Positions 29,385 to 52,089 of a stretch of 59,566 nucleotides of DNA are shown here, piece by piece. Position 1 is the stretch's first letter; each line of letters starts with the position of its first letter. The position numbers and the translations under genes were made by a program. This DNA is from a virus (Duplodnaviria; Caudoviricetes), in the IMG/VR virus record IMGVR_UViG_3300046796_000573, positions 1-59,566 of that record, one strand, 5' to 3'. The notes under the pieces are model-generated. The model did no database searches, had not been told where the DNA came from, and worked only from the letters and a program-made list of their open reading frames with translations.

Positions 29385-29971
29385 GGAACCCACCCGGCCG
29401 TTCCCAGGTAGCGCTGCACCTTGCTCCGCTCCGTGCCCAGCACGATCAGCGCGGAGCCGTGCATCGGCTGCTTCCCGCGCTCGAAGCCCGGCGTGCCGTC
29501 CAGCGCCATCTGCCCGGTGTGCAGCATGAAGCGCACGCGGTCGCGCAGCAGCACCACCGATGTGCTCGAGCGCCGCCACTCCTCGGCGAAGAGCTTCGGC
29601 GTGCGCACCTGCACCATCGCGAGTTGGTCGATCGAGTAGGCGAAGAAGACGGCCCACCCGATGAGGCCCTTGCTGTACGAGCGCACCAGCTTGTCCCACC
29701 ACGGCCCGGGCGGGCTGGGCGGGTTCAGCCAGACCGACGGCGCTTCCCACGTGTCGCCGGCCAGGCCGTCGTCGGCCTCCGTCATGAAGCGATCCGCCTT
29801 CACCAGGTGGTTCGCCACCGCGCAGCTGGCCGGGTCCAGCGCGAACCTGCCGTCCAGCATGCTGCGGCATGGGTCGACGATCTCCGGTGGCGAATACCAC
29901 TCGCTGGAGATCGGCTCCGCGACGTAGTGCTGGAACAGCGCGCCCACACCTGCACCGCGCTTGCGGCTCAC
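29381..29971 (-). CDS. Phage DNA N6-adenine methyltransferase-like (Dam family)
   Basis: EWYSP, LDPAS, DDGL...W, VWLNPPS, RVRF motifs. Confidence 0.75.
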   Translation of the reverse strand: MSRKRGAGVGALFQHYVAEPISSEWYSPPEIVDPCRSMLDGRFALDPASCAVANHLVKADRFMTEADDGLAGDTWEAPSVWLNPPSPPGPWWDKLVRSYSKGLIGWAVFFAYSIDQLAMVQVRTPKLFAEEWRRSSTSVVLLRDRVRFMLHTGQMALDGTPGFERGKQPMHGSALIVLGTERSKVQRYLGTAGWVP

Positions 29972-30462
29972 GATGCGGGCTCCTGGTACTTGGTGATGCA
30001 GGCGGCGCAGACCCAGAACGGCAGTTCCGGCGTGGTGCTGCGCGGCAGCAATGCCTGCTGCCCGTGACGCTTGTCGTAGCGGCCGCACAGCTCGCACACG
30101 TGCGGCCCGTCGATGCGCCGCAGGGCATAGAGCAGCCCGGCGCAGAAGCCGTGCTCGTACGAGTCGCGCGCCGCGCCCAGGTGCTTCGCCAGCTCCGCGT
30201 CCACCAGCTCCGCGGCGCATTGCACGCTGTCGGTCACCTTCAGCTTGATGGGCCACTCGATCGGCTTCCGCATTGCGCAGCCCTGGAAGTGCCGGCGCGG
30301 GTCGGCAGCCTGGATCGCATTGCAGGTGCAGCGCTCCGGCTCCTTGCCCGGGCAGTCCTCCACGTCGGTGTTCGGATCGAATGCACCGCACAGCGTGCAG
30401 AACGGCCCGCGCGTGCCCAGCTGGTAGCTGACGTTCTCGCCGACCTCGATAACGTGCTTCAT
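29968..30462 (-). CDS. Cys-rich hypothetical protein
   Basis: Several CxxC pairs; coupled. Confidence 0.55.
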   Translation of the reverse strand: MKHVIEVGENVSYQLGTRGPFCTLCGAFDPNTDVEDCPGKEPERCTCNAIQAADPRRHFQGCAMRKPIEWPIKLKVTDSVQCAAELVDAELAKHLGAARDSYEHGFCAGLLYALRRIDGPHVCELCGRYDKRHGQQALLPRSTTPELPFWVCAACITKYQEPAS

Positions 30463-31403
30463 GACCGCACCTCGATTCCGTCCACGTCCGCGTACCCGGG
30501 CACCTGGCGCACGCGCAGCATCGGCTCGAACTCGTCGATGTCGCCGCCCTTCTTCTCCTTCAGCTTCACCGGGCGCGACCATTGCGGCTCGAACACCAGC
30601 CGCGGGTTCACGTCCTCGCGCAGGCCGTCCGGCGTCCAGTCGTAGGGCTGCTCGCCGTACTGCTTGACGAACGGGGCCACCCCATTCTCGAGGCAGTCGT
30701 GGACGATGTTGCGCACCCACGACAGATGCATCGGGCGCGCGCCAGGGCCGCTCTCGCCGCCAACGATCACCCAATCGGGCCCGCCCACCACCAGGTAATC
30801 GCTGATGTCGACGCTCTCGAGGAGCGGCTCCATCGAATAGAACTTGACCGGCGCAGGCACCTTGAACAGGTGCGGCGCACGCTCGGCCAGGCGCTCCTCG
30901 TCTTCGATCGTGGTGCCGGCCCAGGCATTACCAGGCCACCGATCTGCCCACGATGCAGGCGCGAGCCGGACCATGTTCTGCGGCCGCTTGGTGAGCAGCA
31001 GCCAGTCCAGGCTCGGTGTCTTCGCGATCAGGTCGAACAGCCGCGCGCGCGGTGCCACCAGATCGGGACGGTCCTCGAAGACGTCTGCGAGCGACGCGCA
31101 GAACACGCGGCGCCTGCGCCCCTTCGGGCCGTAGCCCTCCGCCTCGCGCTGCCAACGCAGCGGCTGATTCCAATACGACTCGACGCGCATCAGGCGCGGG
31201 GCCTTCACGCCCCAGTGCTCGCCGCGCTCCACGTCCTTGGTCATGTCCAGCGCCTGGAGCAGCCGCTTCTCTGCCGGGCGCGGGTGGAAGCGCGCGTTGC
31301 GCTCCTCCGCGTAGCAGTGCTTGCAGCCCGGGCTGACCTTCGCGCAGCCTTCCCACGGATTGAAGGTGTGGTGCGCCCACTGAATCTTCGTGTCGGCTCC
31401 CAT
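30459..31403 (-). CDS. DUF5131 (phage Gp37/Gp68) family protein
   Basis: TKIQW..HTFNPWEGCAKVSPGCKHCYAE, VFCASLADVF, LLTKRP, SMEPLL, WVIVGGESG, FVKQ. Confidence 0.9.
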   Translation of the reverse strand: MGADTKIQWAHHTFNPWEGCAKVSPGCKHCYAEERNARFHPRPAEKRLLQALDMTKDVERGEHWGVKAPRLMRVESYWNQPLRWQREAEGYGPKGRRRRVFCASLADVFEDRPDLVAPRARLFDLIAKTPSLDWLLLTKRPQNMVRLAPASWADRWPGNAWAGTTIEDEERLAERAPHLFKVPAPVKFYSMEPLLESVDISDYLVVGGPDWVIVGGESGPGARPMHLSWVRNIVHDCLENGVAPFVKQYGEQPYDWTPDGLREDVNPRLVFEPQWSRPVKLKEKKGGDIDEFEPMLRVRQVPGYADVDGIEVRS

Positions 31404-32279: not shown

Positions 32280-33436
32280 GACTGCGGGGTCCAGTCTGCC
32301 GGCGGCTCGTCAACGCCCGGGCGCGGCGCTCCCGCAGGCGCGTCCGCCGGCGGTGCCTGCGCCTTGGGGGCCTCATCCGCCGGTGCGTCCTTGGCGGGCC
32401 CCTGGCGCTTGGCGTCGGCCTGCTTCTTGGCCTCGTCGGCCTTGGCCTTCACCTTGTCGGCGGCCGACTTCACCTTCTTGGCGGTCTCCTCGGCCTTCTT
32501 CTTCGCACCGGCGTCGGCGTCGGGCTCGACGTTCTTCATGGCCACCAGCTCGGCCCAGCGCAGCTCGCCGTCCTTCAGCGACTGGTAGATGCCCCGCAGC
32601 TCGAGCAGCTCGGCCGGGTCGAGCCCGGCCACCGGCTTCAGCAGGTACTCGGCGAGCATGGCCGGTGTGATGCCGATCGCGGCGAACGCGTCGATGAGGC
32701 GCTTGCGCTCCCCCTCGGGGTCGTCCTTGATCTTCTTCGTGAGCGTCTCCACCACCACCTCCATCGCCTCTTCGACCAGGTCCGCCGGCAGCACGCGGAC
32801 GATCAGGTTGCGGATGATGATCGAGGCGAGCCGGCCCTCCTTCTGCTGGAGCTCGTCGTCGGTGGTCGGGTAGACGTACACCGCCTTGCCCGCCGTGTTC
32901 GACCGCGTGAAGAGCGGCGGAACGGCCACCTGCTTGCGCTCCTGCCCTTGGCCTTCCCACACGGTGCGGAGCTTGGACCGCTCCACCGTCTTCTCGACGG
33001 TGAAGTCCTTGCCCCACGACAGGTTCGACTCGAAGTCGGTCACGCTGGCGTGGAGCACGCGCTTCTCGTCGTCGTCCTGGAGCGTGACGATCGTGGGGTG
33101 GATGTTGCCGAACGCACGTGCAGCCGCCTCGGCGAAGCGGATGCTGGGCCCCTCGGCAAACTGGTCCTCGGCCTGGCGCGTGGCCGGGTTCCACTTCGAC
33201 CCGGTGGGCTTCTTGTAGCGCGCCTTCTCGGCGAAGCGCGGCCGCCGGCAGTCCTTCAGCACGGCGATGCGCACCTGGTCCATGTCACGCGGGAAGCGCT
33301 TCGCGATCGCGTACTGCGCCTGGACCTGCATCTGCGCGCTCGCCGCGGAAGCCGTGGCGCTGATCTCATTGCGCGGCGCCTGCATCAGCCCCGCGAACGG
33401 CGGTGCTCCGCCCTGCTCTTCGTCATGCTCGTTCAT
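32276..33436 (-). CDS. Putative single-strand annealing/recombination protein
   Basis: QAQYAIAKRFPRD, EGPSIRFAE motifs; directly downstream of YqaJ exonuclease; disordered tail. Confidence 0.5.
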   Translation of the reverse strand: MNEHDEEQGGAPPFAGLMQAPRNEISATASAASAQMQVQAQYAIAKRFPRDMDQVRIAVLKDCRRPRFAEKARYKKPTGSKWNPATRQAEDQFAEGPSIRFAEAAARAFGNIHPTIVTLQDDDEKRVLHASVTDFESNLSWGKDFTVEKTVERSKLRTVWEGQGQERKQVAVPPLFTRSNTAGKAVYVYPTTDDELQQKEGRLASIIIRNLIVRVLPADLVEEAMEVVVETLTKKIKDDPEGERKRLIDAFAAIGITPAMLAEYLLKPVAGLDPAELLELRGIYQSLKDGELRWAELVAMKNVEPDADAGAKKKAEETAKKVKSAADKVKAKADEAKKQADAKRQGPAKDAPADEAPKAQAPPADAPAGAPRPGVDEPPADWTPQS

Positions 33437-34431
33437 CACTTTGCCTTGCCCTTGGGTGCCTTGGGTTTGAACGGATAGGCGCGCGGCACACGCGACGCCT
33501 TCCCCCGGTGCTTTTCGATCAGCGCCAGCGGCACCGTGCCGCCGACATCTGTCGCCATCTCCTCCGCCACTGCCTTCCAGTCCACGCGCCCAGCGACGCG
33601 GTAATGCAGGAACTTCCCCCACGGCCCGCTGACGCCGTACTCCGACCCGACCAGCTCGATGAAGGCGTTCGTCAGCTGGTCCTCCGCGTGCTCGAGCAGC
33701 TTGCGCATCTGCGTGGCCGTCACCAGCCACGCGAACGCCTGCGCCACCGCCTCGTCCTCCACCTTGCGCAGGTGCTCCGTCTTGATGCCGCCCGGCGTGA
33801 GCGCCCGCAGTGCACGGCGCACGGCCTGCGGGTCCTCGCACGGTGGTGGCTGGTCGGCCTCGACGTACGCCGGCCACCACGCCTCGCACACGTCGATCAG
33901 CTGCTCCTCGATCTCCTGGTCGCGCTCGATGCGGATCAGGCGCAGGCCCGTGCCGCCCACCAGCGCGATCACGTCCCACCACGGCACGTCGGCCACGGCC
34001 ATGCACTGCCGCGCCTGGAGCTCCACGTGCAGCGGTGCAGTTTCGGGATCGGCCCAGTCGCTGGCCTGCGACATGCCGACGATCTTGATCTCCGCGCCAC
34101 CGGCCACACGCTTCGCGCTCGCCTTGCCCTCGACGAAGCTGTCGGGGGAGGCGAGCACGCGCTCGTGCTTGGGGTGGCGCAGCGTGGTGCCGACGGCGCG
34201 CGCCACGTTGCCCGTGCGGATGCGGTAGATGTCCCGCATCGCCTGCTCCAGGGCCAGGCCGATGAACTGCTCGTCGGTCTCGTCCTGCTCCTCGAAGGTG
34301 GTGCGCCCGGTCTTCTCCAGCCACACGTCGATCGGCGTGCTGAACGGGCTCACCTCCATCACGATGGGCGTCTCGCTGGCGCCGATGCCCGTGGCGCGGA
34401 TCGCGCGCTGCTCCGGTGTGAGGCCGCTCAC
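33436..34431 (-). CDS. YqaJ-like (lambda exonuclease family) recombination nuclease
   Basis: RATGIGASE, VWLEKTG, G..LE, LASPD, EIK motifs. Confidence 0.9.
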   Translation of the reverse strand: MSGLTPEQRAIRATGIGASETPIVMEVSPFSTPIDVWLEKTGRTTFEEQDETDEQFIGLALEQAMRDIYRIRTGNVARAVGTTLRHPKHERVLASPDSFVEGKASAKRVAGGAEIKIVGMSQASDWADPETAPLHVELQARQCMAVADVPWWDVIALVGGTGLRLIRIERDQEIEEQLIDVCEAWWPAYVEADQPPPCEDPQAVRRALRALTPGGIKTEHLRKVEDEAVAQAFAWLVTATQMRKLLEHAEDQLTNAFIELVGSEYGVSGPWGKFLHYRVAGRVDWKAVAEEMATDVGGTVPLALIEKHRGKASRVPRAYPFKPKAPKGKAK

Positions 34432-34685
34432 GCCTGACACCTAGGACAACCGAGTCGGCCGCACTCGTCGCCAGCTTCGCACCCGTTGTAGCCGTCCGTG
34501 ACGCTGCCCTGGTCCGGCGAGATCTCGACGTCATCCTCGTGCACGATGCGCGTGCCGTCGGCGGTGGCCACCTTGTAGAAGCCCTCGCCTTCGTAACCGC
34601 TGATCAGGCCCGATCGACAGTTGCGCGAGATGCGATCGGCGCCCTTGCCGCGCACGCGCACGCCCTCCTTGAACGCGGTCTTCAC
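34428..34685 (-). CDS. Small SH3-like/Cys-tail hypothetical protein
   Basis: GTG coupling; C-term CGRLGCPRC. Confidence 0.5.
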   Translation of the reverse strand: MKTAFKEGVRVRGKGADRISRNCRSGLISGYEGEGFYKVATADGTRIVHEDDVEISPDQGSVTDGYNGCEAGDECGRLGCPRCQA

Positions 34686-35086
34686 GCCGTCCTCCTGTCG
34701 CGCGGTGCCGCAGGTGCGGGCCTGGCGTGCTCGCGATCGATCGCGTGGCGCAGCGCGTGCGCCCGCTTGTCGCGCGGGCTGGGGAAGCCGCGCCAGTCGG
34801 CGACCACCATCTTGCGCATGCGCTGGAGCTTGCCGGTGGCGGACCACACGCGGACCACCAGGAAGCCGTCGTCGGGCCCCGCACCCACGGCCTGCACGTA
34901 GGCGATCCGCACCGCGTCGTGCGCGCCGTGCCGCACGTAGATGATGTCGCCGTCGTCGATCGGGTTCGCGTCCTGGTGGACGAGCTTGCCCTCGAGTGCC
35001 CGCAGCACGTCGGGCGCGTTCTCGGGATCAAGGAGCGACAGCTGCACCGCGGCCAGCACGTGCATCCGCAGATCGTCGGCGTTCAT
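34682..35086 (-). CDS. Hypothetical protein
   Basis: Coupled at both ends. Confidence 0.55.
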   Translation of the reverse strand: MNADDLRMHVLAAVQLSLLDPENAPDVLRALEGKLVHQDANPIDDGDIIYVRHGAHDAVRIAYVQAVGAGPDDGFLVVRVWSATGKLQRMRKMVVADWRGFPSPRDKRAHALRHAIDREHARPAPAAPRDRRTA

Positions 35087-36678
35087 GTGCCCGCTCCGAT
35101 CTCCACCGCGTGCGCGGGCCCAGCGTCCACGCGCGTGGCGATCAGCTGGTACCCGTCGGCGGTGGCGGCCGCGATGAAGACGGGGAGCTGCTCCTTGTCG
35201 AGCCGCTCCAGGCCGTCCACGATCACGAGCCTGGCCTTGGGGTTCAGCCGGCGCGTGATGTCCACGGCGAAGCGAACCTGCTCCGCGCCCGACAGGTGAT
35301 CGAGCGCCACGCCGTCGAGCGTGATCGTGTCGCCGTCCAGGCCCAGCCCGGGGATGCCACCCGCTGCCGCCAGCAGGGCCGCCGGTGCCTCGTTGGTGAA
35401 CGCCTTGACCGCCTGGTCCAGCTGGTATGCGGCGAGCTTGGCGGCCGCCGTGGCCTTGCGCGCCTCGTCCGCGTCGAGCTGCCCGTTCTTGGCGCGCAGC
35501 CTGGCGTTCAGCAGGGCCACCATCCCCTCCGCCTGCTTGACCGCTGCGCCCGCGGTGCGGATTGCTTCGGCCGCCTCTTCGGGCTGGGCCTGCATACCGA
35601 TCGACTCCTCGAGCTCGGCCGCCTGGCCTTCGAGATCAGCCGCCCGATCCATGCGGTCGACGGCCTGCTGTTCGCGCTCCTGGAGCCCGGCCAGCTTGCG
35701 CTGGAGCTTGTCGCGCTCCTCGCGGTGCAGCACCAGCTCGCCCTTCGCGATCTCCAGCTGCTCCTCGAACGCCTTCACCCGTGCCTCCGCACCGGCGATC
35801 GCCTCCGACACGTTGCCAGCCTGCTCGAGCACCGCGTCGATGTCCGCCGGCTGCACGGTCGGCGCAGACGCCAGGCACATGCTCGCCTCGTTGCGCAGCT
35901 GCGCCACCCTGGCGCGCGTCTTCGCGGTGCGCTCCTGGTGCGACGCTGCCGCCTCGGCGCGCGCCTGTGCCGCCGCTGCGTCCTTGCGCCTGGCCACCAG
36001 CAGCTCCTCCGCGTCGACACCCTCGGCGAGCTCGTCGAACGCCTGCACGATGTCGGGCTCGGCCACCGCCTGCGCCACCAGCTGGTCAGCGCGGGCGCAC
36101 GCGTTGGCCTCCTCCGCCTCGGCGAGTTTGTACGCCTTGTTCGCCAGCGCGCGCCGGTCGTAGAAGCCCTGGCGCAGGCGGTCCACCACCTCCAGCCCGT
36201 GGCCTGCGCACTCCGTCGCCGTCAGCGTCTCGCCCGGCGGCAGCCAGCGCTTCAGCAGCTCCGGCGTGGCCACCACGGGCATCGCGCCCAGGATCGTCGC
36301 GCGGCGCTTCTTGGGGTCGCGCTCGAACACCAGGTCCAGCGGGTCCAGCGGCGCCATGCCGAGCAGCTCCTGGAGGAAGGCCGCAGGGGCCTTCTGCACC
36401 AGGCCGTCGGCACGCATCACGCGCACGCTCTGCCCGGTGGGCGTGATCAGGCGCCGCACGGACACGTCGTCCAGGTCCACCAGGATCTCCGCCTCGTCGG
36501 CGCCCTTGCGGATGGCGGTGGGATTGGCCCCGCGCCCGGTGAGCGCGATGCGGATCGCCTCCAGGACGCTGGTCTTGCCGCTGCCGTTGCTGCCCTCGAT
36601 GATCGCGCCGTGCGGCCCGAACACGTACTCGCGTGCGTGGATGCCGAGCACGTTGCTGATCTTCACCCGGGCGATCAC
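35083..36678 (-). CDS. SMC/Rad50(SbcC)-like ATPase
   Basis: Walker A GSNGSGKTS, coiled coil, signature LSGAE, Walker B/D-loop IVDGLERLD. Confidence 0.85.
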   Translation of the reverse strand: MIARVKISNVLGIHAREYVFGPHGAIIEGSNGSGKTSVLEAIRIALTGRGANPTAIRKGADEAEILVDLDDVSVRRLITPTGQSVRVMRADGLVQKAPAAFLQELLGMAPLDPLDLVFERDPKKRRATILGAMPVVATPELLKRWLPPGETLTATECAGHGLEVVDRLRQGFYDRRALANKAYKLAEAEEANACARADQLVAQAVAEPDIVQAFDELAEGVDAEELLVARRKDAAAAQARAEAAASHQERTAKTRARVAQLRNEASMCLASAPTVQPADIDAVLEQAGNVSEAIAGAEARVKAFEEQLEIAKGELVLHREERDKLQRKLAGLQEREQQAVDRMDRAADLEGQAAELEESIGMQAQPEEAAEAIRTAGAAVKQAEGMVALLNARLRAKNGQLDADEARKATAAAKLAAYQLDQAVKAFTNEAPAALLAAAGGIPGLGLDGDTITLDGVALDHLSGAEQVRFAVDITRRLNPKARLVIVDGLERLDKEQLPVFIAAATADGYQLIATRVDAGPAHAVEIGAGT

Positions 36679-40117: not shown

Positions 40118-40428
40118 CGCCAGGCCTCGCCCTTCAGCCACCCGCGCTCGCCCGCGTTGCGCACGTAGCCGCCTTCCATCAGACGGCCCAGCGCCTGCCA
40201 CACGCGCCGCTCCTGGAGGCCGGTGGCGGCCGCGATCTCCTCCGCGCGCAGGCCCCACCCGTGCTTCGCGAGCACTTCGATCGTGCGGATCTCGTGCTCC
40301 GAGCGCTTCCGTGCGGCCTGCGCGTTGCGGCGCGTGCGGCGCCTGTGCTGCTCGAGGCAACGCTCCGCGAGCGTGGCCCAACCGCCCGCGACGATCGCGG
40401 TGCTCACCGTTCTGCACGTGGTCGTCAT
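40114..40428 (-). CDS. Winged-HTH protein with Arg-rich N-terminal segment
   Basis: EEIAAATGLQERRVWQALGRLMEGGYV; RRRTRRNAQAARKR. Confidence 0.65.
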   Translation of the reverse strand: MTTTCRTVSTAIVAGGWATLAERCLEQHRRRTRRNAQAARKRSEHEIRTIEVLAKHGWGLRAEEIAAATGLQERRVWQALGRLMEGGYVRNAGERGWLKGEAWR

Positions 40429-41171
40429 GACGTCGCTCCGATCTGTCGCAGTGTCTCTTCGCGCCAGGCCATCGCGTAGCGCGCGCAGTTGGCGCAGCTG
40501 GCGTGCTCGCACCCGTGCAGGGGCTCGGCGCGGCGCGCGTCGTAGCTCCACGCCAGCGAGTCGCTCGAGGCCAGCAGTCGTCCTCCTGGTGATGCCAGTC
40601 CGGTGCGCTTGAAGCCGAACCCGTGCAGGCGCAGGCCCTCGTCCGCCAGCCACGCCAGGAGGAGCGAGGCGGACACCGTGTTCTGCCGGCGGCACACCGT
40701 GCCCACGCCCACCAGCGGCTCCGCCAGCAGGTCCACGCCGGCAGCGGTGTACGCGTCCACGTGATCCAGGTAGTCGCCGCGCGCCCAGCCTTGCAGCACG
40801 GGCACGATCGGCAGCTCCGGCGCCAGCGCGCGCAGCTCGAGGTAGTTGGCCAGCGTGCGCGCCTGGTGCTCCGCCACGGTCAGCCCGGTGCGACGCAACA
40901 TCTCCGGCTCGCACATCCAGTCCTGTGGTGCTGCCCAGGCCAGCGAGCCGATGTCGTCGCGGTACCGGCGCACCTGCGCGACGTAGGCGCGTGCGTCGAG
41001 CTGCCACGCGCCATGCATCGACAGCTCGGTGAAGCCGCCGCTGTCCAGCGCCCACGTCGCAGCCGCACGGGGCAGGCGCTTCATCGTCTCCAGCCGGCGG
41101 CGCGAGACGAACAGCGGCACGCCCAGCGTGGCCAGCCAGTTGACCTGATGCGTGCCCAGGTAGAACGTCAC
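40425..41171 (-). CDS. dpdA: DpdA-like (TGT-fold) deazaguanine DNA transglycosylase
   Basis: WALDSGGF, PQDWMCE, PVLQG, VGVG, LHGFG, SSDSLAW motifs characteristic of TGT/DpdA. Confidence 0.75.
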   Translation of the reverse strand: MTFYLGTHQVNWLATLGVPLFVSRRRLETMKRLPRAAATWALDSGGFTELSMHGAWQLDARAYVAQVRRYRDDIGSLAWAAPQDWMCEPEMLRRTGLTVAEHQARTLANYLELRALAPELPIVPVLQGWARGDYLDHVDAYTAAGVDLLAEPLVGVGTVCRRQNTVSASLLLAWLADEGLRLHGFGFKRTGLASPGGRLLASSDSLAWSYDARRAEPLHGCEHASCANCARYAMAWREETLRQIGATS

Positions 41172-44363: not shown

Positions 44364-45337
44364 CCTGGACGGTGGCGGAGCTCCGTGCTGTGCTGGCCCT
44401 GCCCCTGGACGACGACCGCCTGCGGGTCATGGTCGTCCACCTGGTCGGACCCCCCGAGGCACCACCGGCACCGGTGGCAACCAACCCAAGGCGGGCAGCT
44501 GCGGGTAGGAAGGGTGGCCAAGCCAGGGTCCGAAACGCCCAAGCCAGCCCCCAAGCCAGCGAGGCAAGCCAGCCAAGCCAGGACCCAAGCCAGCCCCCAA
44601 GCCAGCCAAGCCAGCGCCAGGCCAGCCCCCTCGCGGTCTCCAGTGGAGATCTCTCTTCTCTTGCAGGATCTGAGGGAGATCAGAGCTCAGAAGGAGAGGG
44701 AGAGTGCGAGAGGGAGAACCCTACCGCAGCTAGCTTGCAAGCAAGCCAGCCAAGCCAGGCAAGCCAAGCCAAGCCAGGCAAGCCAGCCAAGCCAGGACCC
44801 AAGCCAGAGGACCCCTGGGGCCTGGTGCCCACCGGCCAGGATCCCGACGCGCCCAAGGCGGTGGCCAAGGCACCGAAGAGCGCCAAGCCAGACCTCGCCC
44901 TGGCTTGCCTGGAGGAGCCCGAGCGGATCGCCTACGAGGTGATCATCAGCGACGAGAGTCTGGCGCCGATCGTCCCGCGCCCTGCCGCCTGCGCCCGTGA
45001 CCTCTGTGCGATCGGCCCAGGGGTCGACGTCGCCATGGAGATCCGCAAAGCAGGTGCCTGGCTGCGCTCGCACCCGGAGCAGCGCAAGTCGCTAGGCGCG
45101 GCGTACCTTGGGCGCTGGATCACCAGGGCGCAGGAGAGCGCGCGCCACCGGCCCACGCTGGCGGCCCAGGCGCAGCGCCTCCGCGCGGTGCCACCGCCAC
45201 GCGACGACGGTGCACCGCCGGCCACACCTGCCGAGCAGCGCGCCGTGGACGAGCTGCGCTCGAAGGGCAGGCCCACCGACGAGGAGCTGATGGCGCCCAT
45301 GGTGATCCCTGAGCACCTGCGCGGGGCCGCGTCGTGA
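44360..45337 (+). CDS. Putative replication initiator (lambda O-like position)
   Basis: AAGRKGGQAR motif, internal DNA repeats, directly upstream of DnaB. Confidence 0.6.
   Translation: MTWTVAELRAVLALPLDDDRLRVMVVHLVGPPEAPPAPVATNPRRAAAGRKGGQARVRNAQASPQASEASQPSQDPSQPPSQPSQRQASPLAVSSGDLSSLAGSEGDQSSEGEGECERENPTAASLQASQPSQASQAKPGKPAKPGPKPEDPWGLVPTGQDPDAPKAVAKAPKSAKPDLALACLEEPERIAYEVIISDESLAPIVPRPAACARDLCAIGPGVDVAMEIRKAGAWLRSHPEQRKSLGAAYLGRWITRAQESARHRPTLAAQAQRLRAVPPPRDDGAPPATPAEQRAVDELRSKGRPTDEELMAPMVIPEHLRGAAS
44519..44891 (+). repeat. About 15 CAAGCCAG direct repeats, putative iterons/origin
   Basis: Two clusters (44519-44614, 44742-44807) plus one at 44884, flanking a purine/pyrimidine-skewed spacer. 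Confidence 0.75.
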
Positions 45338-46749
45338 GCGCCGCCAAGCGCGTGCCGCACCTCCAGCTCGTCTCGCCGCCGACCGTCGCCGGTAAGCTGC
45401 CACCGCACGACCTCGAAGCAGAGGCCGCCGTGCTGAGCGCGTGCCTGCTGAAGCCCGCGTGCATGGACGAGGTGGCGCGCATGCTGCGGCCCGAGCACTT
45501 CTACTCGGAGGCGAACCGCCTGGTGTGGACGGCGATGCTCGCGATCGCTGAGCGCGGCGCACCGATCGACGTGGTGCAGGTGGCGAGCGAGCTGCGCGAC
45601 CGCGACCGGCTGCCGCAGACTGGCGGCACGGCGTACCTGGCGCAGATCGTCGATGCGACGCCCGCGATCGCACACGTGGTCGCGCACGCCACCACGGTGC
45701 TGCGCAAGGCACGCGTCCGCGCCACGATCGCGGCGATGCAGGTGGCCGTCGCCGAGGGGTACAACGACCACGGCGAGGACGAGACGTGGATGCGCGACGT
45801 GCCCATCCGCGTGGAGCAGGCGGCGCAAGCAGGCGCGGTGCTCCAGACCAGCCGCACGATCTTCGAGGCTGGCGAGGAGATGACCGCCGCGATCGAACGG
45901 ACGCGCGCGCTGGCCGAACTGGGCGTGCGGCCCGGGCTCGACGTGGGCGACCCGAACCTTCAGAAGCTGACCGGCGGCCTGCACGAGGCCGAGGTGACCA
46001 TGCTCAGCGCGCCCACCAAGGGCTTCAAGACGACGCGCGCGATGGCCATGGTGATGGCGGCCGCCAGCAGCGTGGAGCGCTACATCGACGAGGGGCAGGA
46101 GAAGCAACGGCCCAACGGCGTGGCAGTGTTCGAGCTCGAGATGACCGACACCGAGCTGGCCATGCTGGCCGCTTGCCAGGTGGGTGGCGCCGACCGCGAG
46201 CGCTTCCGCCTCGGCACGGCGACGCCTGGCGATTACGACAAGCTGTTCGCCGGCAAGCACGGCTTCGAGAAGCTGCCGATCATCATCGACGCGCGCACCG
46301 ACCTGACGATCGACACGCTGCGCGCCGCCGTGCGCGAGGCCCGCGTGAAGCTGTGGAACAAGTTCAAGGCGCCGCTGCGGCTGGTGGTGATCGACACGGT
46401 GCAGCTGCTGGCCACCAAGGGGAACACCGACCCCGACGCGATGCAGGGCTTGGTGGACGCAGCCGGCGCACGCATCCGCGAGCTCAGCCTGGAGAAGGAG
46501 TTCGCGCGCACCAGCTGGCTGGTCCTGTCGCAGCTCAACTCGCAGGGCCAGATGCGCGGCAGCCGCGCGCTGGAGCAGCACTGCACGTCGTGGTGGGACC
46601 TGCGCGTGGTGGACGACGACTCGCCCCAGGCGCGCGACTACATCAAGGTGGCGCGCATCACGGTGAAGCTCCAGCGCTCCGGCAAGCAGGGCAGCGACGT
46701 AATCGCAGCTGCGTGGCTGAACACCATTACCGGGCGCGTGTACGGATGA
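45334..46749 (+). CDS. dnaB: Replicative DNA helicase
   Basis: LPPHDLEAEAAVL N-domain, LTGGL, VVIDTVQLL, LSQLN, RGSRALEQ; Walker A degenerate (APTKGFKT). Confidence 0.9.
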   Translation: MSAAKRVPHLQLVSPPTVAGKLPPHDLEAEAAVLSACLLKPACMDEVARMLRPEHFYSEANRLVWTAMLAIAERGAPIDVVQVASELRDRDRLPQTGGTAYLAQIVDATPAIAHVVAHATTVLRKARVRATIAAMQVAVAEGYNDHGEDETWMRDVPIRVEQAAQAGAVLQTSRTIFEAGEEMTAAIERTRALAELGVRPGLDVGDPNLQKLTGGLHEAEVTMLSAPTKGFKTTRAMAMVMAAASSVERYIDEGQEKQRPNGVAVFELEMTDTELAMLAACQVGGADRERFRLGTATPGDYDKLFAGKHGFEKLPIIIDARTDLTIDTLRAAVREARVKLWNKFKAPLRLVVIDTVQLLATKGNTDPDAMQGLVDAAGARIRELSLEKEFARTSWLVLSQLNSQGQMRGSRALEQHCTSWWDLRVVDDDSPQARDYIKVARITVKLQRSGKQGSDVIAAAWLNTITGRVYG

Positions 46750-47513
46750 GGCGCATCGTCACCGCGCCGATCCACCTGAAGAGCGAGAACAAGTTCCGCG
46801 GCTTCACCGGTGGGTTCGTGGCGGCCAGCTCGAGCAAGCGCACGCGCCGCGACGTGGGCCTGGTGCTCACGCAGATCCCGAAGCCGCCGCTGCGCCTGGC
46901 CGACGGCAGCGCCAACACGTTCCGCGTCACGCTGGTGCGGATCAGCGTCGGCATCCTCGACGACGACAACCTGCGCGGCGCGTGCAAGGCGGCCCGCGAC
47001 GAGGTGGCTGCGTGGATCGGCATCGACGACGGCCACCACCTGATCCGCTTCCTCTACGACCAGAAGGGATGCAGGCGCGGGCGCTTCGGGCTTCAGATCA
47101 CGGTGGACGACGACACGCCTGGCGAGCCGTACGCGCGCGAGCTGGCCGGTGTGCCGGCGGCCACGTTCGAGGCACGCAAGCGCGGCGCACCGAAGCACCA
47201 GCGCTCGCAGCCGGTGCGCCCCAAGCAGGTGGAGCTGACGTTCCGCGACGCGTACGCGGTGCTGCCGTGGGAGCAGGACGGCGGCGAGCCGGTGCTCACC
47301 AAGCTGGCCATCCGCGGCGTCGATCCGCCGCGCGCGCTGCGGCTGCGCGTGCCCGCGCGAATGCTGTCCGCAGCGGCCAGCGTGCGCTACCAGCCAGGGG
47401 GCGAAGTGGTGCTGGAGCGCGGACTGGCGCGCGTCGGCTCGGAAGAGCTGTGGGTGTACACGGTGCCCGAGAGCACCACGGAGCAGGCAGAGCAACCAAC
47501 GGAGGAAGCATGA
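46746..47513 (+). CDS. RusA-like Holliday junction resolvase with C-terminal extension
   Basis: LDDDNL..ACK..RD...GIDD motif. Confidence 0.6.
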   Translation: MRRIVTAPIHLKSENKFRGFTGGFVAASSSKRTRRDVGLVLTQIPKPPLRLADGSANTFRVTLVRISVGILDDDNLRGACKAARDEVAAWIGIDDGHHLIRFLYDQKGCRRGRFGLQITVDDDTPGEPYARELAGVPAATFEARKRGAPKHQRSQPVRPKQVELTFRDAYAVLPWEQDGGEPVLTKLAIRGVDPPRALRLRVPARMLSAAASVRYQPGGEVVLERGLARVGSEELWVYTVPESTTEQAEQPTEEA

Positions 47514-47944
47514 AGATCGTGAAGGACGTGAAGAGCAAGATCGACGACGACCGCAGGCTGGCGCTGGGCCAGGAGATCGCACAGCACGCGATGCGGAAGG
47601 TGGAGCTGGAGGAGGCCAAGAAGAAGGCGGGCAGCGAGTACACGGTGAAGCTGAAGGCCGAGCTCGAGGCGCTCAACCGCAAGAGCAAGGCGCTGCTCAC
47701 CGGCGAGCTCGAAGAGGCCGTGGAGTGCGAGACGATCGAGGACTTCGAGCGCAACGAGGTCCGCACGGTGCGGTGCGACAGCGGCGAGATCGTGGCCACG
47801 CGCGCCATGACCGGCGACGAGCGCCAGACCACGATCGACGGCATCCCCGAGGCCAGCGTCGAGACCGGCGCAGGCGCCAAGCGCAAGCGGCTGCCCAAGG
47901 CGGGCACCGTCACCGACGACAGCGAACCGACGAAGGCGCACTGA
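47510..47944 (+). CDS. Conserved phage hypothetical protein
   Basis: GGAGG RBS; VRCDSGEIV.TRAMT..ERQ. Confidence 0.7.
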   Translation: MKIVKDVKSKIDDDRRLALGQEIAQHAMRKVELEEAKKKAGSEYTVKLKAELEALNRKSKALLTGELEEAVECETIEDFERNEVRTVRCDSGEIVATRAMTGDERQTTIDGIPEASVETGAGAKRKRLPKAGTVTDDSEPTKAH

Positions 47945-47945
47945 C

Positions 47946-48212
47946 GTGGCCACCATGCGCATGGTGCTGGACGGCACCGAGGACAAGGAGCCGGCCATCC
48001 CGGCGGAGATCGATCGCGCGGTGTTCCTTGAGAACCACTCCGGCAGCGGGCAGCCGTGCATCGGCATCGTGCTGCGCACCAAGGAGGGCACGCTGGTGGA
48101 GGGCATCACCTCGCTGGCGCTGTTCGAGACGGCGGCCAAGGCGTTCGCAGCGCGCGCCGACGCGCTGGGCTATCGCTACGACCCGGGCACCGGGCGACGG
48201 GTGAAGCCGTGA
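47946..48212 (+). CDS. Hypothetical protein
   Basis: High-GC3 frame. Confidence 0.55.
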   Translation: MATMRMVLDGTEDKEPAIPAEIDRAVFLENHSGSGQPCIGIVLRTKEGTLVEGITSLALFETAAKAFAARADALGYRYDPGTGRRVKP

Positions 48213-48595
48213 CCGCCGCAGCATGGTGCCGACTGGTGCTGCCGCTTCTGCTCGTCGTTGGCTGCGACGTGCCGGAGATCGCAGCCGAGCCTGGGCCGAC
48301 CACGGTGGCGCTCGCACCCGCGCCCAGCTGCCGCACCGAGCCGATGCCCAGGTGGCTGACGGGCACGACGGTGGACGTCGACGCGAACGAGGTGGGCATC
48401 GCCTCTGTCCGCTGCGACGCCGGCACCAAGCTGGTCACGGGTGGCTGCCGCTCGGCGGGCAACGTGGGCGACCTGGTGATCGTCGAGAGCACGCCGCTCG
48501 AGGACGAAGGGTGGCGCTGCGCTGCCCGCGCGTGGGATGCCGGCGCGACGCACCTTGTCGTGTCGATCGTCTGCGAAGGGTGGCCGGAGCCATGA
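48209..48595 (+). CDS. Lipoprotein
   Basis: Lipobox LVVGC; CDAGTKLVTGGC Cys-rich domain. Confidence 0.6.
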   Translation: MTAAAWCRLVLPLLLVVGCDVPEIAAEPGPTTVALAPAPSCRTEPMPRWLTGTTVDVDANEVGIASVRCDAGTKLVTGGCRSAGNVGDLVIVESTPLEDEGWRCAARAWDAGATHLVVSIVCEGWPEP

Positions 48596-48984
48596 CCACC
48601 GACGACGTGAAGCAGAACGCGCCGGCAGCACCGCAGCGCAAGCTGGTGATGGGCGACGCGGAGCTGCGCCGCTACGCGAAGCAGATCACCGGCGTGGACG
48701 CGACGCTGGAGTGGATGAGCCCGGGGGACGCGCAGCTGCGGCTCCAGGCGCACAAGCCGACGGCGACGCTGATCGAGCACAAGCACCCGGCGGCCGTCGT
48801 GCTGGTGATGACGAGCGGCTCGGAGTCGTGGGCGCTCGGTTCGGTGGTGGATACGCCGCACCACCGCGACGTCGTGCGGGCGCAGATGGCGTGCTCGCTG
48901 GTGCACGAGCGCGACAAGTGCACGTGTAACGGCGGCGTCTGCGCGGCGTGGCGGCGCGAGCTCGGGCGCCTGCGCGGCAGCTGA
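48592..48984 (+). CDS. Hypothetical protein
   Basis: ATGA coupling; C-term CTCNGGVC. Confidence 0.55.
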   Translation: MTTDDVKQNAPAAPQRKLVMGDAELRRYAKQITGVDATLEWMSPGDAQLRLQAHKPTATLIEHKHPAAVVLVMTSGSESWALGSVVDTPHHRDVVRAQMACSLVHERDKCTCNGGVCAAWRRELGRLRGS

Positions 48985-49019
48985 AAAGGCGAACGCCCCG
49001 TCGTCGGGACGGGGCGTTC
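48985..49019. terminator. Perfect 12-bp hairpin, putative terminator
   Basis: GAACGCCCCGTC-gtcgg-GACGGGGCGTTC with upstream A run (U tract on - strand). Confidence 0.65.
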
Positions 49020-49086
49020 ATGCGACCGACAGCTGGCTGGCCTGGAGCGGGCAGAGGGACCGAAGGTGCGCCACCAAGGAGTAGCG

Positions 49087-49920
49087 ATGGCTAAGGCGAA
49101 GCGCAAGCCGCACGTGAGCGGCGAGGTGGAGCTGGTGGAGCTGGCAACGGTGCGGCCCAACGGGTGGAACCCCAACGAGTGCGACGCGCACACGCTGGCG
49201 TCGATCGAGCGCGGCTTCACCGAGGAGGGCTGGCTGAAGTCCCACGCGCTGACGATCTGGCGCACCGACGAGAAGGGCGTGGAGAAGCGCCTGATCATCG
49301 ACGGCGAGCACCGGTGGGAGGTGGGCACGCGCCTCGACATGAAGCACGGCCCGGGCATGTTCATCGACGGCATCACCGAGGCGCAGGCCAAGGCGCTGAC
49401 CATCAAGCTGGACAAGCGGCGCGGCGCGTTCCTCGCCGACCCGCTCGCCGCACTGCTCGCCGAGCTGCGCGCCACGTTGAACAGCGACGACCTGGCGCAG
49501 GAGCTGGGCTTCGCGCCGGAGGAGCTGCTCAAGGCGCTGCCCAGCCCGGAGAACCTTGCCGACGGCAGCGCGTTCCCACCGAAGCCGCCGGCACCAGGGC
49601 CGAACAACGTGAACCCAACGCAGGGCGCGGGCAGCCCGTACACGCGCGTGGTGCAGCTGTACCTGTCGATCGACGACCACGCCGCGTACCACGGCACGTA
49701 CGGCGGCGCGTACCTGGGGTTCCCGGAGTTCTTCTGCGGCGTGGACATGCGCGACGGCGACGCGATCCTGTTCGACCCGCACGCGTGGCACGCCGTGACC
49801 GACTTCGAGGACAAGGGCGACGACGCGGAGCGGATCAGCGTCGTGTACTACCTGCGCTCGAGGATCGACCAGTGCCAGACACCGGAGCTCGAGCTCCAGA
49901 GAGCGCAGGCTGCACGATGA
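49087..49920 (+). CDS. ParB/Srx-like domain fused to C-terminal fragment of a TET/JBP-type 2OG-Fe(II) oxygenase
   Basis: PNGWNPN, IIDGEHRW; then GTYGGAYLGFP...RDGDAILFD.HAWH..T...RISVVYYLR; HxD absent. Confidence 0.7.
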   Translation: MAKAKRKPHVSGEVELVELATVRPNGWNPNECDAHTLASIERGFTEEGWLKSHALTIWRTDEKGVEKRLIIDGEHRWEVGTRLDMKHGPGMFIDGITEAQAKALTIKLDKRRGAFLADPLAALLAELRATLNSDDLAQELGFAPEELLKALPSPENLADGSAFPPKPPAPGPNNVNPTQGAGSPYTRVVQLYLSIDDHAAYHGTYGGAYLGFPEFFCGVDMRDGDAILFDPHAWHAVTDFEDKGDDAERISVVYYLRSRIDQCQTPELELQRAQAAR

Positions 49921-50705
49921 TCGTCATCCCCTCACACCGTAGATGCGATTCGCTGGCGGCCATCGCCCTGGCGTGGCTCGCGTCTACCGACGTCCCGCTG
50001 AGCGAGGTGGTGGTCGTCGTCAGCGACGAGGCCGATCGCGCCGAGTACAGCGCCCGCCTGCCGGTGCGCGTGGTGCTGCCGCCGCAACGCCAAAGCACCG
50101 GGCTGACCGACAAGCTGAACGCCATCCACTACGGCATGGGCGACCGCGAGCTGGTGCTGCTCGAGGACGACATCGTTGTGTGCGGCGACGATCGCAAACC
50201 AATCACCAAGCTTCAGCGCGTGCTGGACGAGGGCGCCGAAGCGATTGCCGGCGGTGGGCTTTGGGGAGTCGCCAGCTCGTCCAACCCATTCTTCTACGGG
50301 CGGCCAGGTGCGGGCTTCCGCTTCATCGCCGGGTTCATCTGGGGCTCCCGCGGCAACGCCGATCCCGAGCTCGCATGCACGGTGCCGGTGAAGGCCGACT
50401 ACGAGCGCACCTGCCGCTACTATCGGCGGTTCGGGACGCTGCACAGGGTGGGCGGTGTGGGGGCCAAGGCCAAGGCCAGCTACGCGCTCGCCGGCGGCAT
50501 CCAAGCAAACCACACACACGAGGCCCGCCAGGTGCTGGAACGGCAGGCCGTGCTCGATCTCTGCCAGGCGTTCCCGCACTGGCTGGCGCCCAACGAGCAA
50601 CGCAAGAGCGGGTTCCCCGAGCTGCGGCTGCTCAAGGCACCGGCGAGCGCACCGGCGTATCCGCCTGCACCGTTGGAGGCTTGGCCGTGCGGCTGGCTGC
50701 TCTAG
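49917..50705 (+). CDS. GT-A glycosyltransferase (TET-associated/GREB1-like)
   Basis: IVIPSHRR, LLEDDI (DxD-like), LWGV...NPFF, KADYERT, GGIQ. Confidence 0.75.
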   Translation: MIVIPSHRRCDSLAAIALAWLASTDVPLSEVVVVVSDEADRAEYSARLPVRVVLPPQRQSTGLTDKLNAIHYGMGDRELVLLEDDIVVCGDDRKPITKLQRVLDEGAEAIAGGGLWGVASSSNPFFYGRPGAGFRFIAGFIWGSRGNADPELACTVPVKADYERTCRYYRRFGTLHRVGGVGAKAKASYALAGGIQANHTHEARQVLERQAVLDLCQAFPHWLAPNEQRKSGFPELRLLKAPASAPAYPPAPLEAWPCGWLL

Positions 50706-51418
50706 GGCACAGCGGCTCCAGCGTGCGCAAGGTCGGCCCGCTGGTGGTGAAGACGGGCCCGCTGCGCATGCTCGAAGGCGTGGCGAAGCAGCGGGCGAAC
50801 CCCAGCGTGCGGCTGCCGTCCGTGCCTGTGGTGGCAGCGTGGGCGATGGGCGATCGCGGCGTGGTGGTGATGCGCCACCAGGCTGGCCTCGCCGCCGTCG
50901 AACGCGTGGACGTGGCGCGCACCGCAGCGCACGCCGCGATCGCCTACGTGCGTAGCAACGTGCTGCCCGGCAGCGTGTCGGCGTGGCGCCTGGCCGAGCG
51001 CCTGGTGGACACCGTGAAGACCTGGCGCGCCAAGTCGGTGGCAAAGGCGCTCGCCACGCTGAGCCTGCCCGCGGGCCGCTGCCACGGCGACCTGACGCTC
51101 TCGAACATCATCGTGGAGGGCTCGCGCGCCCACGTGCTGGACTTCGCGTCGCTGCCCATCGAGAGCCCAGCGATCGACGCGTGCAAGCTGCTCCAGGACG
51201 CGGTGCACGGGTGGGCGCTGCGCATCGCACCGCGGATCGCCGACGAGCGCGCGCTGAACGCCGCGTGCGAGGTGCTGCTGCCGGCGCTCCAGCGCCTGCC
51301 GGGCTACAGCACCTGGGGCGACGTGCTGATGGCGTGGACGCTGCTGCGTGCGTGGCCGTATGCATCGCCCGAGCTGCGGGAGTGGATCGAACGGGAGGTG
51401 GACGCGTGCATGTTCTGA
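50687..51418 (+). CDS. APH/choline kinase-fold phosphotransferase
   Basis: GHSG loop, CHGDLTLSNI, VLDF, D..KL.QD. Confidence 0.8.
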   Translation: MRLAALGHSGSSVRKVGPLVVKTGPLRMLEGVAKQRANPSVRLPSVPVVAAWAMGDRGVVVMRHQAGLAAVERVDVARTAAHAAIAYVRSNVLPGSVSAWRLAERLVDTVKTWRAKSVAKALATLSLPAGRCHGDLTLSNIIVEGSRAHVLDFASLPIESPAIDACKLLQDAVHGWALRIAPRIADERALNAACEVLLPALQRLPGYSTWGDVLMAWTLLRAWPYASPELREWIEREVDACMF

Positions 51419-52089
51419 TCGTCACGGCAGCGGGCACGTCGGACAGGTTCGGCGGCGAGACGAAATGGGCCCTGCGCGACCCGCGCACCGGTCACTCGCT
51501 GCTGCACTGCGCAGTGGACGGCGTGAAGGGCTGGGACCGCCTGGTGGTGGCCGTGCGCCGGCACCCGAAGGAGCACCCGGCCGAGGACTGGGCCGTGCGC
51601 GAGCTGGGCATGATGGGCGCCGACGTGGTGAAGGTGGGCGAGACGGCCAGCCACGCGGAGACGGCGCAGAAGACCATCGCCCTGGCCTGCCGCCCGGACG
51701 ACGTGGTGACCATCCGCGACGCGGACAACCGCGTGGACCTGCACCTGCGCAGCTGCAACGCCATCGGCGTGTACGTGCCGAAGAGCGGCCGCGACCGCCT
51801 CCGCACCGACGCGAAGGGCAAAGCGGGCGTCCGCCGCAGCAAGAACCGCGTGACGAACATCTTCGAGCGGCGCGGCAACGCCGACGCGTGCTTCAGCGTT
51901 GGGTGCATCACGTTCGCCAGCGCAGAGCAGGCCCGCGTCCTCCTGGACGACGGCGTGGCGCGCATCAGCACGGGCATCCAGCGGCTCATCGACCGCGGCG
52001 AGCAGGTGGCCGCCATCGAGAGCAAGGCGTTCGACGACTGGGGCACACGCGCCGCGTGGGAGCGGTACGTGGCAGAATCGAAGGCGTGA
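51406..52089 (+). CDS. Sugar-phosphate nucleotidyltransferase (NTP_transferase)
   Basis: TAAGTSDRF...KW, TASHAET, RDADN, DWGT. Confidence 0.8.
   Translation: MHVLIVTAAGTSDRFGGETKWALRDPRTGHSLLHCAVDGVKGWDRLVVAVRRHPKEHPAEDWAVRELGMMGADVVKVGETASHAETAQKTIALACRPDDVVTIRDADNRVDLHLRSCNAIGVYVPKSGRDRLRTDAKGKAGVRRSKNRVTNIFERRGNADACFSVGCITFASAEQARVLLDDGVARISTGIQRLIDRGEQVAAIESKAFDDWGTRAAWERYVAESKA

Follow-up and report, generated by a model that had tools for sequence, protein, structure and literature searches.

We examine here a gene of the virus record IMGVR_UViG_3300046796_000573 in which a ParB-like protein runs in frame into the end of a TET/JBP-family oxygenase. The window, by which we mean the whole stretch of DNA analysed (59,566 nt), is the complete IMG/VR virus record, with direct terminal repeats and 70% G+C. 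We will argue that the gene, an open reading frame (ORF) at positions 49087-49920, is what remains after ~0.7 kb was recently deleted, in frame, from a known two-gene module, composed of a ParB-like activator and a 5-methylpyrimidine dioxygenase (5mYOX), and we put the probability of this reading at about 0.8. On this reading the gene is a deletion scar in a recently described system; it is neither a minimal oxygenase nor a new enzyme architecture. The argument is carried by the anatomy of the ORF, by the separate and complete genes of its relatives, and by a sister variant found in a nearly identical contig.

The gene and its parts are the following.
49077-49082, plus strand: Shine-Dalgarno sequence AAGGAG of the fusion ORF, 5 nt before the ATG.
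49087..49920, plus strand: fusion ORF (P0001), a ParB-like activator with an in-frame 5mYOX (TET/JBP) C-terminal remnant, 277 aa plus stop.
49087..49692, plus strand: ParB-derived part, aa 1-202, assigned by PHROGs, a ParB profile, identity to the protein P0003, structure prediction and Foldseek.
49690..49693, plus strand: deletion junction, between ParB '..AAYH' (codon 202) and oxygenase 'GTYGG..' (codon 203), where ParB homology stops and TET homology starts.
49693..49917, plus strand: 5mYOX (TET/JBP) remnant, aa 203-277, assigned by Pfam, PHROG, the protein P0070 and a TET profile.

The ORF has a G+C content at third codon positions (GC3) of 0.94. Its ParB part starts with a nucleotide-binding-type ParB/Srx domain (DGEHRW motif at aa 72-77), continues with a helical segment to ~aa 160 and a disordered linker at ~aa 160-185, and ends after just the first ~17 residues (a strand and the start of a helix) of the C-terminal dimerisation domain. 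The peptide YTRVVQLYLSIDDHAAY occupies aa 185-201 (nt 49639-49689) and is followed by HGTYGGAYLGFP at aa 202-213 (nt 49690-49725). The remnant beyond the junction holds the last jelly-roll strands, the distal iron histidine in HAWH (aa 232-235, nt 49780-49791), the arginine strand RISVVYY (aa 249-255, nt 49831-49851), a conserved cysteine at aa 263 and a C-terminal extension. The 14 residues after Cys263 align with the extensions of ParB-linked homologues. The overlap with the downstream glycosyltransferase (GT) gene is also kept, the TGA of the fusion ORF and the ATG of the GT gene sharing the letters ATGA at 49917-49920.

The initial annotation had described a ParB tail running directly and in frame into a TET/JBP tail that keeps the distal His and the Arg region and lacks the HxD motif. 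This description holds for the ORF at 49087-49920 on the plus strand, where all of the peptides are found. Its estimate that the last third of the oxygenase is present has to be corrected: the remnant is equivalent to residues 211-284 of P0070 and thus amounts to the last quarter of the enzyme (~74 of ~284 residues). The HxD motif of P0070, HKD at residues 192-194, lies upstream of the kept part. Of the three iron ligands only one is left, and ~three quarters of the jelly-roll is gone. The ParB partner has suffered as well, with ~two thirds of its C-terminal domain lost (profile positions 200-232). Together, ~32 ParB codons and ~210 oxygenase codons add up to a deletion of ~0.7 kb, give or take a small gene overlap such as that of the relatives (29 nt in locus L005).

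Both assignments follow from profile searches. Against the PHROGs, the ParB part gives phrog_2159 with an E value of 2.7e-14 as well as five further ParB PHROGs, and it covers positions 3-199 of 232 of our own ParB profile, built from 18 homologues (alignment A2), with an E value of 2.2e-71. It is 64% identical to the stand-alone ParB P0003, which runs 32 residues past the junction, and DGEHR, which falls in the region of the conserved GxxR-type motif, is invariant across the ParB alignment. The initial annotation's assignment of the C-terminal segment to TET/JBP is borne out strongly by phrog_24024 (E 3e-13), by the full-length P0070 (284 aa; 68% identity over residues 210-283, E 3e-32) and by our own TET profile (positions 210-283 of 291, E 4.9e-29), and weakly by Pfam PF12851, which is matched at positions 108-163 of 164 with 16.4-18.6 bits, under the cut-off of 34.9. 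P0070, the sister protein P0002 discussed below and the L005 enzyme clear this cut-off with 54-79 bits.

The AlphaFold2 (AF2) model of the fusion protein has a mean predicted local distance difference test score (pLDDT) of 74.8 and a predicted template modelling score (pTM) of 0.54. The pLDDT is 84-97 at aa 11-150, below 50 at aa 175-190 and 47-69 in the tail, which is modelled as two short hairpin strands and a terminal helix, with no jelly-roll. Foldseek returned 27 matches at E <= 0.001, and those listed are of ParB, KorB, Noc, PadC and sulfiredoxin type, with no oxygenase among them. The best are ParB-CDP, KorB, Noc and M. xanthus ParB, the probability being 1.00 to ParB-CDP, KorB and Noc. 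The N-terminal domain thus has, in the model, the ParB/Srx CTPase fold, and nucleotide binding is predicted for it.

These results bear directly on the suggestion that the 75-residue tail is a novel minimal or split oxygenase, in which an Fe(II)/2-oxoglutarate (2OG) centre would be formed with the His and Asp residues of DDHAAYH or with a partner encoded elsewhere. The distal His and the Arg strand are indeed kept, and a His and an Asp do lie just upstream of the junction. However, DDHAAYH belongs by descent to the C-terminal domain of ParB, P0003 having EDHQTYH at this place, and it is followed in the model by the low-confidence tail without a jelly-roll. The Pfam match is confined to the end of the family and stays under its cut-off, no oxygenase was among the listed Foldseek matches, and far milder truncations killed the activity of these enzymes according to O'Toole et al. 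(PNAS 2026, PMC13229309). The missing N-terminal half is not encoded elsewhere either, as already noted in the initial annotation: in searches of the complete 59,566-nt record by tblastn with P0070 and P0002, by protein comparison and with PF12851, the tail was the only TET piece. With no HxD and no N-terminal half in the genome, an active enzyme of this kind is exceedingly improbable.

We now consider how the two genes are arranged in relatives. For this purpose, all ORFs of 80 viral loci, fetched with the ParB alignment, and of additional metagenome loci were scanned with the ParB and TET profiles. Both profiles were found in 13 loci, namely 11 of the 80 viral ones (L012, L014, L015, L016, L018-L021, L025, L027 and L031) together with L005 and L007. 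The arrangement is the same in all 13: a complete ParB ORF, matching the profile through positions 223-230 of 232, is directly followed by a separate TET ORF that begins at profile position 28 or earlier. None of the 13 is fused, and over the window segment and the 88 loci scanned, the window ORF alone carries both profiles. The deletion that had been proposed near 49680-49695 is therefore well placed, the junction lying at 49690-49693 and the relatives carrying separate, complete genes in the same order. It had also been suggested that related phages might show a full TET gene and a methyltransferase (MTase) between the two parts; the full, separate TET gene is there, while nothing, an MTase included, lies between ParB and TET at the 13 loci.

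The nearest relatives are the stand-alone ParB P0003 (232 aa) and the stand-alone oxygenase P0070 (284 aa). Judging from their NCBI contigs, both of 16,950 nt, and from the 13 other loci, these two are most likely adjacent, separate genes. When the query was compared with 1.84 billion representative proteins, P0002 alone of the best 150 matched it in two stretches. A longer fused ParB-TET form was not found: a search for longer proteins (8000 candidates scored, which is weak evidence) gave only the ParB-methyltransferase P0187. With the oxygenase part of P0002 as query, 113 relatives of the oxygenase were obtained, most of them ~280-315 aa long. An intact parental oxygenase of this lineage was not found in a collection of 5.8 billion proteins, the next best match being P0070 at 67%. 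In the viral contig collection, P0003 alone as query gave no relative, whereas alignment A2 gave the loci above; P0070 as query gave three enzymes without ParB at 30-33% identity. The genome contig collection contained just a 34%-identical enzyme, also without ParB, from a Bacteroidota metagenome-assembled genome.

A few other arrangements of ParB were seen in this clade. Two tandem ParB-like genes stand directly upstream of the dioxygenase in L014 (2710-4157), L015 (1209-3021) and L025 (3456-4768), and ParB pairs also occur at several loci without TET (e.g. L034-L036 and L039). P0187 (785 aa) has a ParB N-domain, 45% identical to that of the window, fused to PALP (PF00291) and an N6/N4 methyltransferase (PF01555), and several ParB-PF01555 fusions of 420-460 aa were found (P0028, P0043, P0065, P0066). 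The partners in the ParB N-domain fusions seen here are methyltransferases, not oxygenases. Finally, the 90%-identity cluster of P0001 has an unrelated 50-aa ENA protein as representative and another as member; this appears to be an artefact of how the collection was clustered.

The second line of evidence comes from Logan contigs of four soil sequencing runs (X1-X4), which were aligned to positions 47500-51500. In run X3, a 30,894-nt contig shows 2 differences from the window over 47500-49321 (1822 nt, 99.9% identity). It then departs, resumes identity at 49692, and has 1 difference over 49692-49939. The segment in between is
49322..49691, plus strand: segment swapped in the sister form, 370 nt in the window (ParB aa 79-202) against 406 other letters in X3.
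The X3 contig encodes P0002 (289 aa), which has the same residues 1-78 as the window protein and from there on consists of an oxygenase from ~residue 73 of P0070, HKD included, to the C-terminus of the window protein, with a full Pfam Tet_JBP domain (76.6 bits). We call the window arrangement form A, i.e. ParB(1-202) plus the oxygenase tail, and that of P0002 form B, i.e. ParB(1-78) plus the oxygenase from ~73 to its end. The left edge of the difference between the two is the left breakpoint of B, and its right edge is the right breakpoint of A. Exactly these products would arise if a single ParB|TET ancestor had suffered deletions twice, independently and in overlapping stretches. Form B lacks most of ParB as well as the conserved N-terminal segment of the enzyme (~72 residues), and it is therefore probably disabled too. 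In run X4, a 600-nt contig (48792-49391) has ParB continuing beyond the breakpoint of B. A PDB sequence search with P0002 gave no significant match, and an exact 30-nt search for the sister contig in the viral contig collection, which may leave out close relatives of the window, gave none.

Further downstream, the X3 contig is swapped or strongly diverged relative to the window over 49939-50664, across the GT gene (127 letters for 124, and one diverged stretch of equal length, 223 nt), and it shows 23 differences over 50664-51500. This mosaic boundary just past the GT start suggests an allele exchange of the glycosyltransferase.

On this basis, the following course of events is proposed. The ancestor would have encoded a ParB-like activator and, directly after it, its cognate TET/JBP-family dioxygenase. 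The latter most likely belonged to the class that depends on ParB and oxidises thymine, thereby preparing phage DNA for glycosylation. One deletion would have removed ~32 residues from the end of the ParB C-terminal dimerisation domain and ~210 from the start of the oxygenase (out of ~284), so that the HxD iron ligands and the greater part of the jelly-roll were lost too. The remaining pieces would have been joined in frame, so that translation ends at the oxygenase's own stop, overlapping the GT start. It is plausible that the in-frame outcome was helped by translational coupling, since ribosomes still reach the oxygenase stop at the start of the GT gene.

The consequences can be judged from published deletion data. 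O'Toole et al. describe thymine dioxygenases of phages (5mYOX, Clade C1) whose activity depends on a ParB-like activator encoded together with them. Removal of its nucleotide-binding domain (NBD) left 0% activity and removal of its C-terminal domain (CTD) 2%, the C-terminal extension of the ParB-dependent enzymes was required as well, and a 209-aa homologue with an N-terminal truncation was inactive (PMC13229309). Because the lost elements are needed according to these data, both partners should be disabled: the fusion protein would have no oxygenase activity, and its ParB part would be crippled as an activator. The initial annotation was right that the oxygenase has been lost and overlooked that the ParB partner has lost ~32 residues of its own C-terminal domain. 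Since the genome shows no other route to 5-hydroxymethyl-pyrimidines, the phage presumably makes none, and the GT, kinase and nucleotidyltransferase encoded downstream should be left without a substrate. These sugar genes are intact, as had been stated, their ORFs all being open. The idea of a repurposed pathway, which had been derived from this, finds no support; the flanks are 99.9% identical to the sister contig, and the intact downstream genes are therefore most simply explained by a recent event, being intact only because the loss would be recent.

The downstream genes are the following.
49917..50705, plus strand: putative glycosyltransferase of the TET-associated (TAGT) type, 262 aa, with matches to PF20691, phrog_25200 and phrog_842.
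50681..51418, plus strand: APH-type kinase-like gene (PF01636 APH, E 2.9e-7, 30.9 bits, over the cut-off), whose start is uncertain (TTG at 50681 or an internal ATG near 50768).
51415..52089, plus strand: nucleotidyltransferase-like gene, a weak MobA-like NTP transferase (PF12804, E 0.0051, 17.4 bits, under the cut-off).
The GT matches PF20691 with an E value of 3.6e-4 and 21 bits, under the cut-off of 27.5, phrog_25200 with 7.5e-12 over 203 of 262 residues, and phrog_842 with 7.8e-5. The ATGA overlap suggests that its translation is coupled to that of the fusion ORF. Small-terminase-like, large terminase and portal genes follow after the nucleotidyltransferase. When the downstream genes were compared with all loci by tblastn, the only relative was a TAGT in L025 (30%), and this cargo is therefore not conserved among the relatives.

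Two further searches of the complete genome concern the modification pathway. No C5-methyltransferase of PF00145 was found, with control genomes giving matches, and no pyrimidine hydroxymethylase of the thymidylate-synthase type. The lack of a C5-methyltransferase fits a thymine-directed enzyme, since ParB-dependent 5mYOXs have no neighbouring C5-MTase according to PMC13229309.

It should be noted that a number of points weigh against the deletion reading. An intact ParB+TET version of this lineage is absent from every collection searched, and the ancestor is reconstructed from relatives at no more than 68% identity. The junction is placed from homology. The form A junction is bridged in run X1 only, which is probably the source sample, and its two assemblies (the IMG/VR record and Logan) then come from one read set and are contigs, not raw reads. 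The assignment to the thymine-directed, ParB-dependent subclass is a probable one, made from gene context in the light of PMC13229309. Low AF2 confidence is no proof that the tail is disordered, and the alignment used for the model had oxygenase N-termini misaligned across the ParB region. The reading frame of the remnant is undisturbed by stops or frameshifts, and its sequence, C-terminal extension included, still agrees with the consensus of the family. Furthermore, the deletions of A and B are both in frame, for which the chance would be ~1 in 9 if frames were random. In-frame deletions and a stop-free remnant would be equally compatible with selection acting on the fusion protein or on translational coupling.

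The possibility of a misassembly, raised in the initial annotation, can be weighed on the basis of the contigs. According to this explanation, the ParB and oxygenase genes are both complete in the real phage, and ~0.7 kb was passed over during assembly. Besides the confinement of the form A junction to X1, there are several observations that it would account for. The Logan contigs of X1 break within the gene, at 49476-49485, with positions 47500-49485 covered by a contig of 4414 nt and 49476-51500 by one of 4678 nt. In run X2, a 298-nt contig ends exactly at 49692, as at a branch of the assembly graph, which suggests more than one left-hand context for the oxygenase tail in that sample, and several variants co-occur in these soils. 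Among the contig pieces listed for X2-X4 (there are 113 more) none bridges the A junction, which is uninformative either way.

However, the 4678-nt contig bridges the junction with 216 nt to its left, and Logan and IMG/VR agree on it with 0 differences over 49476-51500. The break in X1 coincides with extra depth from other contigs (21.1 vs ~8.8), which is the pattern of an unrelated look-alike stretch. A de Bruijn shortcut presupposes an exact repeat in common, and the search around the junction turned up only weak GC-rich direct repeats, with no informative microhomology and none able to cause such a shortcut. The reading frame is maintained over the join, terminal repeats close the contig, and form B is itself on record from two sources, JGI and Logan. 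Misassembly is therefore unlikely, and we assign it only a slim residual chance.

Another explanation to be considered is that the fusion is a functional new protein, in which a ParB domain, a linker and an oxygenase C-terminal module have acquired a new role, or that the deletions serve as an off-switch at the population level. The protein could, for instance, be a decoy or a dominant-negative partner acting against the ParB-dependent dioxygenase of competing phages, or its ParB could keep a packaging or partition role. As an off-switch, recurrent in-frame deletions would turn off thymine hypermodification under pressure from modification-dependent restriction. In line with this, the near-identical genomes carry two independent deletions of which neither breaks the frame, the stop of the fusion ORF still overlaps the GT start, and the remnant conforms to the consensus up to and including the C-terminal extension, which AF2 multimer models in PMC13229309 put at the ParB interface. 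In addition, 16 of the 21 differences between the A and B forms in the APH-like gene are synonymous. This bias, on the other hand, may predate the deletions, and the near-identical flanks leave too little time to read selection from the sequence. The fusion is moreover confined to this lineage (none at the 13 other loci, and P0002 as the only two-stretch match among the 150 best representatives), and the tail is modelled at low confidence. We consider a functional new protein unlikely. The same judgement, again as a small but appreciable chance, applies to the more specific scenario that recurrent in-frame ParB|5mYOX deletions have been selected, because they switch hypermodification off in a lineage carrying the 7-deazaguanine enzyme DpdA while keeping the coupling, and/or because the fusion interferes with the dioxygenases of co-infecting relatives. 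The reading that we prefer is accordingly the simple one, a recent deletion that has left a scar.

The consequences of a deletion scar are modest, and both practical and biological. In a metavirome catalogue, such a ParB–TET 'fusion' could pass for a new domain architecture or a minimal oxygenase. Two deletions in near-identical phages from different soil samples, each removing the C-terminal or the nucleotide-binding domain of ParB together with the N-terminal part of the oxygenase, all of them reported as necessary for activity, suggest that thymine hypermodification is dispensable or counter-selected in this lineage. The purpose of this modification was left open by O'Toole et al., and the A and B deletions offer a natural on/off contrast for asking about it. 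Together with the co-resident DpdA, the A/B pair amounts to a natural test, of mild interest, of whether thymine hypermodification can be dispensed with. The natural truncation points are also ready-made constructs for mapping the ParB–oxygenase interface.

The remaining features of the genome of this soil phage are those of a tailed phage, with a Mu-type portal, a protease, F-like head genes and a T4-type large terminase. The following were recorded in addition.
29381-29971 and 30459-30974, minus strand: Dam-type N6-adenine methyltransferase, weak (PF05869, E 1.4e-4, under the cut-off), near a DUF5131 protein.
33436-36678, minus strand: recombination module with a YqaJ-type exonuclease (E 1.2e-16) and an SMC/AAA_23-type ATPase (E 1.1e-10).
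40425-41171, minus strand: DpdA, 7-deazaguanine DNA transglycosylase (PF23859, E 1.5e-91).
45334-46749, plus strand: DnaB helicase, upstream of the modification operon.
48991-49019: inverted repeat with G+C-rich 12-bp arms and a 5-nt loop, read by eye, between the stop of the upstream gene (48982-48984) and the ParB start.
The DUF5131 protein (E 8.8e-32) is matched at profile positions 123-218 of 243 only. With DpdA present and no QueC found in the genome, the phage may modify guanines with host preQ0, and this could bear on the dispensability of the pyrimidine pathway. The inverted repeat was not called by the terminator scan, there being no T-run behind it, and the promoter and terminator scan gave nothing exceeding shuffles.

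We finally compare the window with known systems. The ParB/KorB/Noc proteins of the CTPase fold (PDB 6sdk, 8qa9, 7nfu and 7bnk) share the fold of its N-terminal ~160 residues, with Foldseek E values of 5e-7 to 1e-4 and an identity of just 15-21% among the matches listed. The window protein differs from them in having no recognised helix-turn-helix (HTH) DNA-binding domain, in the context of a DNA-modification operon, and in its cut C-terminal dimerisation domain.

On the oxygenase side, Nonlabens phage P12024L (gp26/gp27, NC_018272.1) has a complete 288-aa PF12851 oxygenase, directly followed by an annotated beta-glucosyl-HMC-alpha-glucosyltransferase, and the C-terminus of this oxygenase is 36% identical to the window tail. 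There, however, the oxygenase is intact, the upstream gene encodes a 72-aa hypothetical protein preceded by a primase, with no ParB, and a methyltransferase follows. The phage TET dioxygenases acting on 5-methylcytosine (5mC) described by Burke et al. (PNAS 2021, PMC8256090) likewise combine a TET/JBP enzyme with a following GT in a cluster for post-replicative hypermodification, and an association with ParB is mentioned. Their active clades A and B stand beside a C5-MTase and act on 5mC, whereas the window has no C5-MTase and a truncated oxygenase.

The closest counterpart is the pair 5mYOX176/ParB176 and, more generally, Clade C1 of O'Toole et al. (PMC13229309). The hallmark reaction of such pairs is the oxidation of T in dsDNA to 5hmU, stimulated by ParB. 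The activator described there consists of an NBD, a short helical segment, an unstructured linker of ~50 residues and a CTD for dimerisation, with no obvious DNA-binding domain, and frequent neighbours of the 5mYOX genes are GTs, ParBs, terminases and APH-type genes. The window differs from the pair in being fused, with ~2/3 of the ParB CTD and ~3/4 of the oxygenase, HxD included, gone; it therefore has neither an intact ParB CTD nor a complete dioxygenase of ~280-300 aa with HxD...H and the 2OG Arg. In other respects the correspondence is close. A ParB-like gene stands directly upstream of a TET/JBP dioxygenase, and within the ParB an NBD-type domain leads through a helical segment and a disordered linker to a small C-terminal domain, no DNA-binding domain being obvious. 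A C5-methyltransferase is likewise lacking, GT and APH-type genes follow downstream, terminases are near, and the extension past the conserved Cys is kept, Cys263 probably corresponding to the 'C280' of that paper. Both losses of the window thus hit elements that are needed for activity, since O'Toole et al. found them to be necessary.

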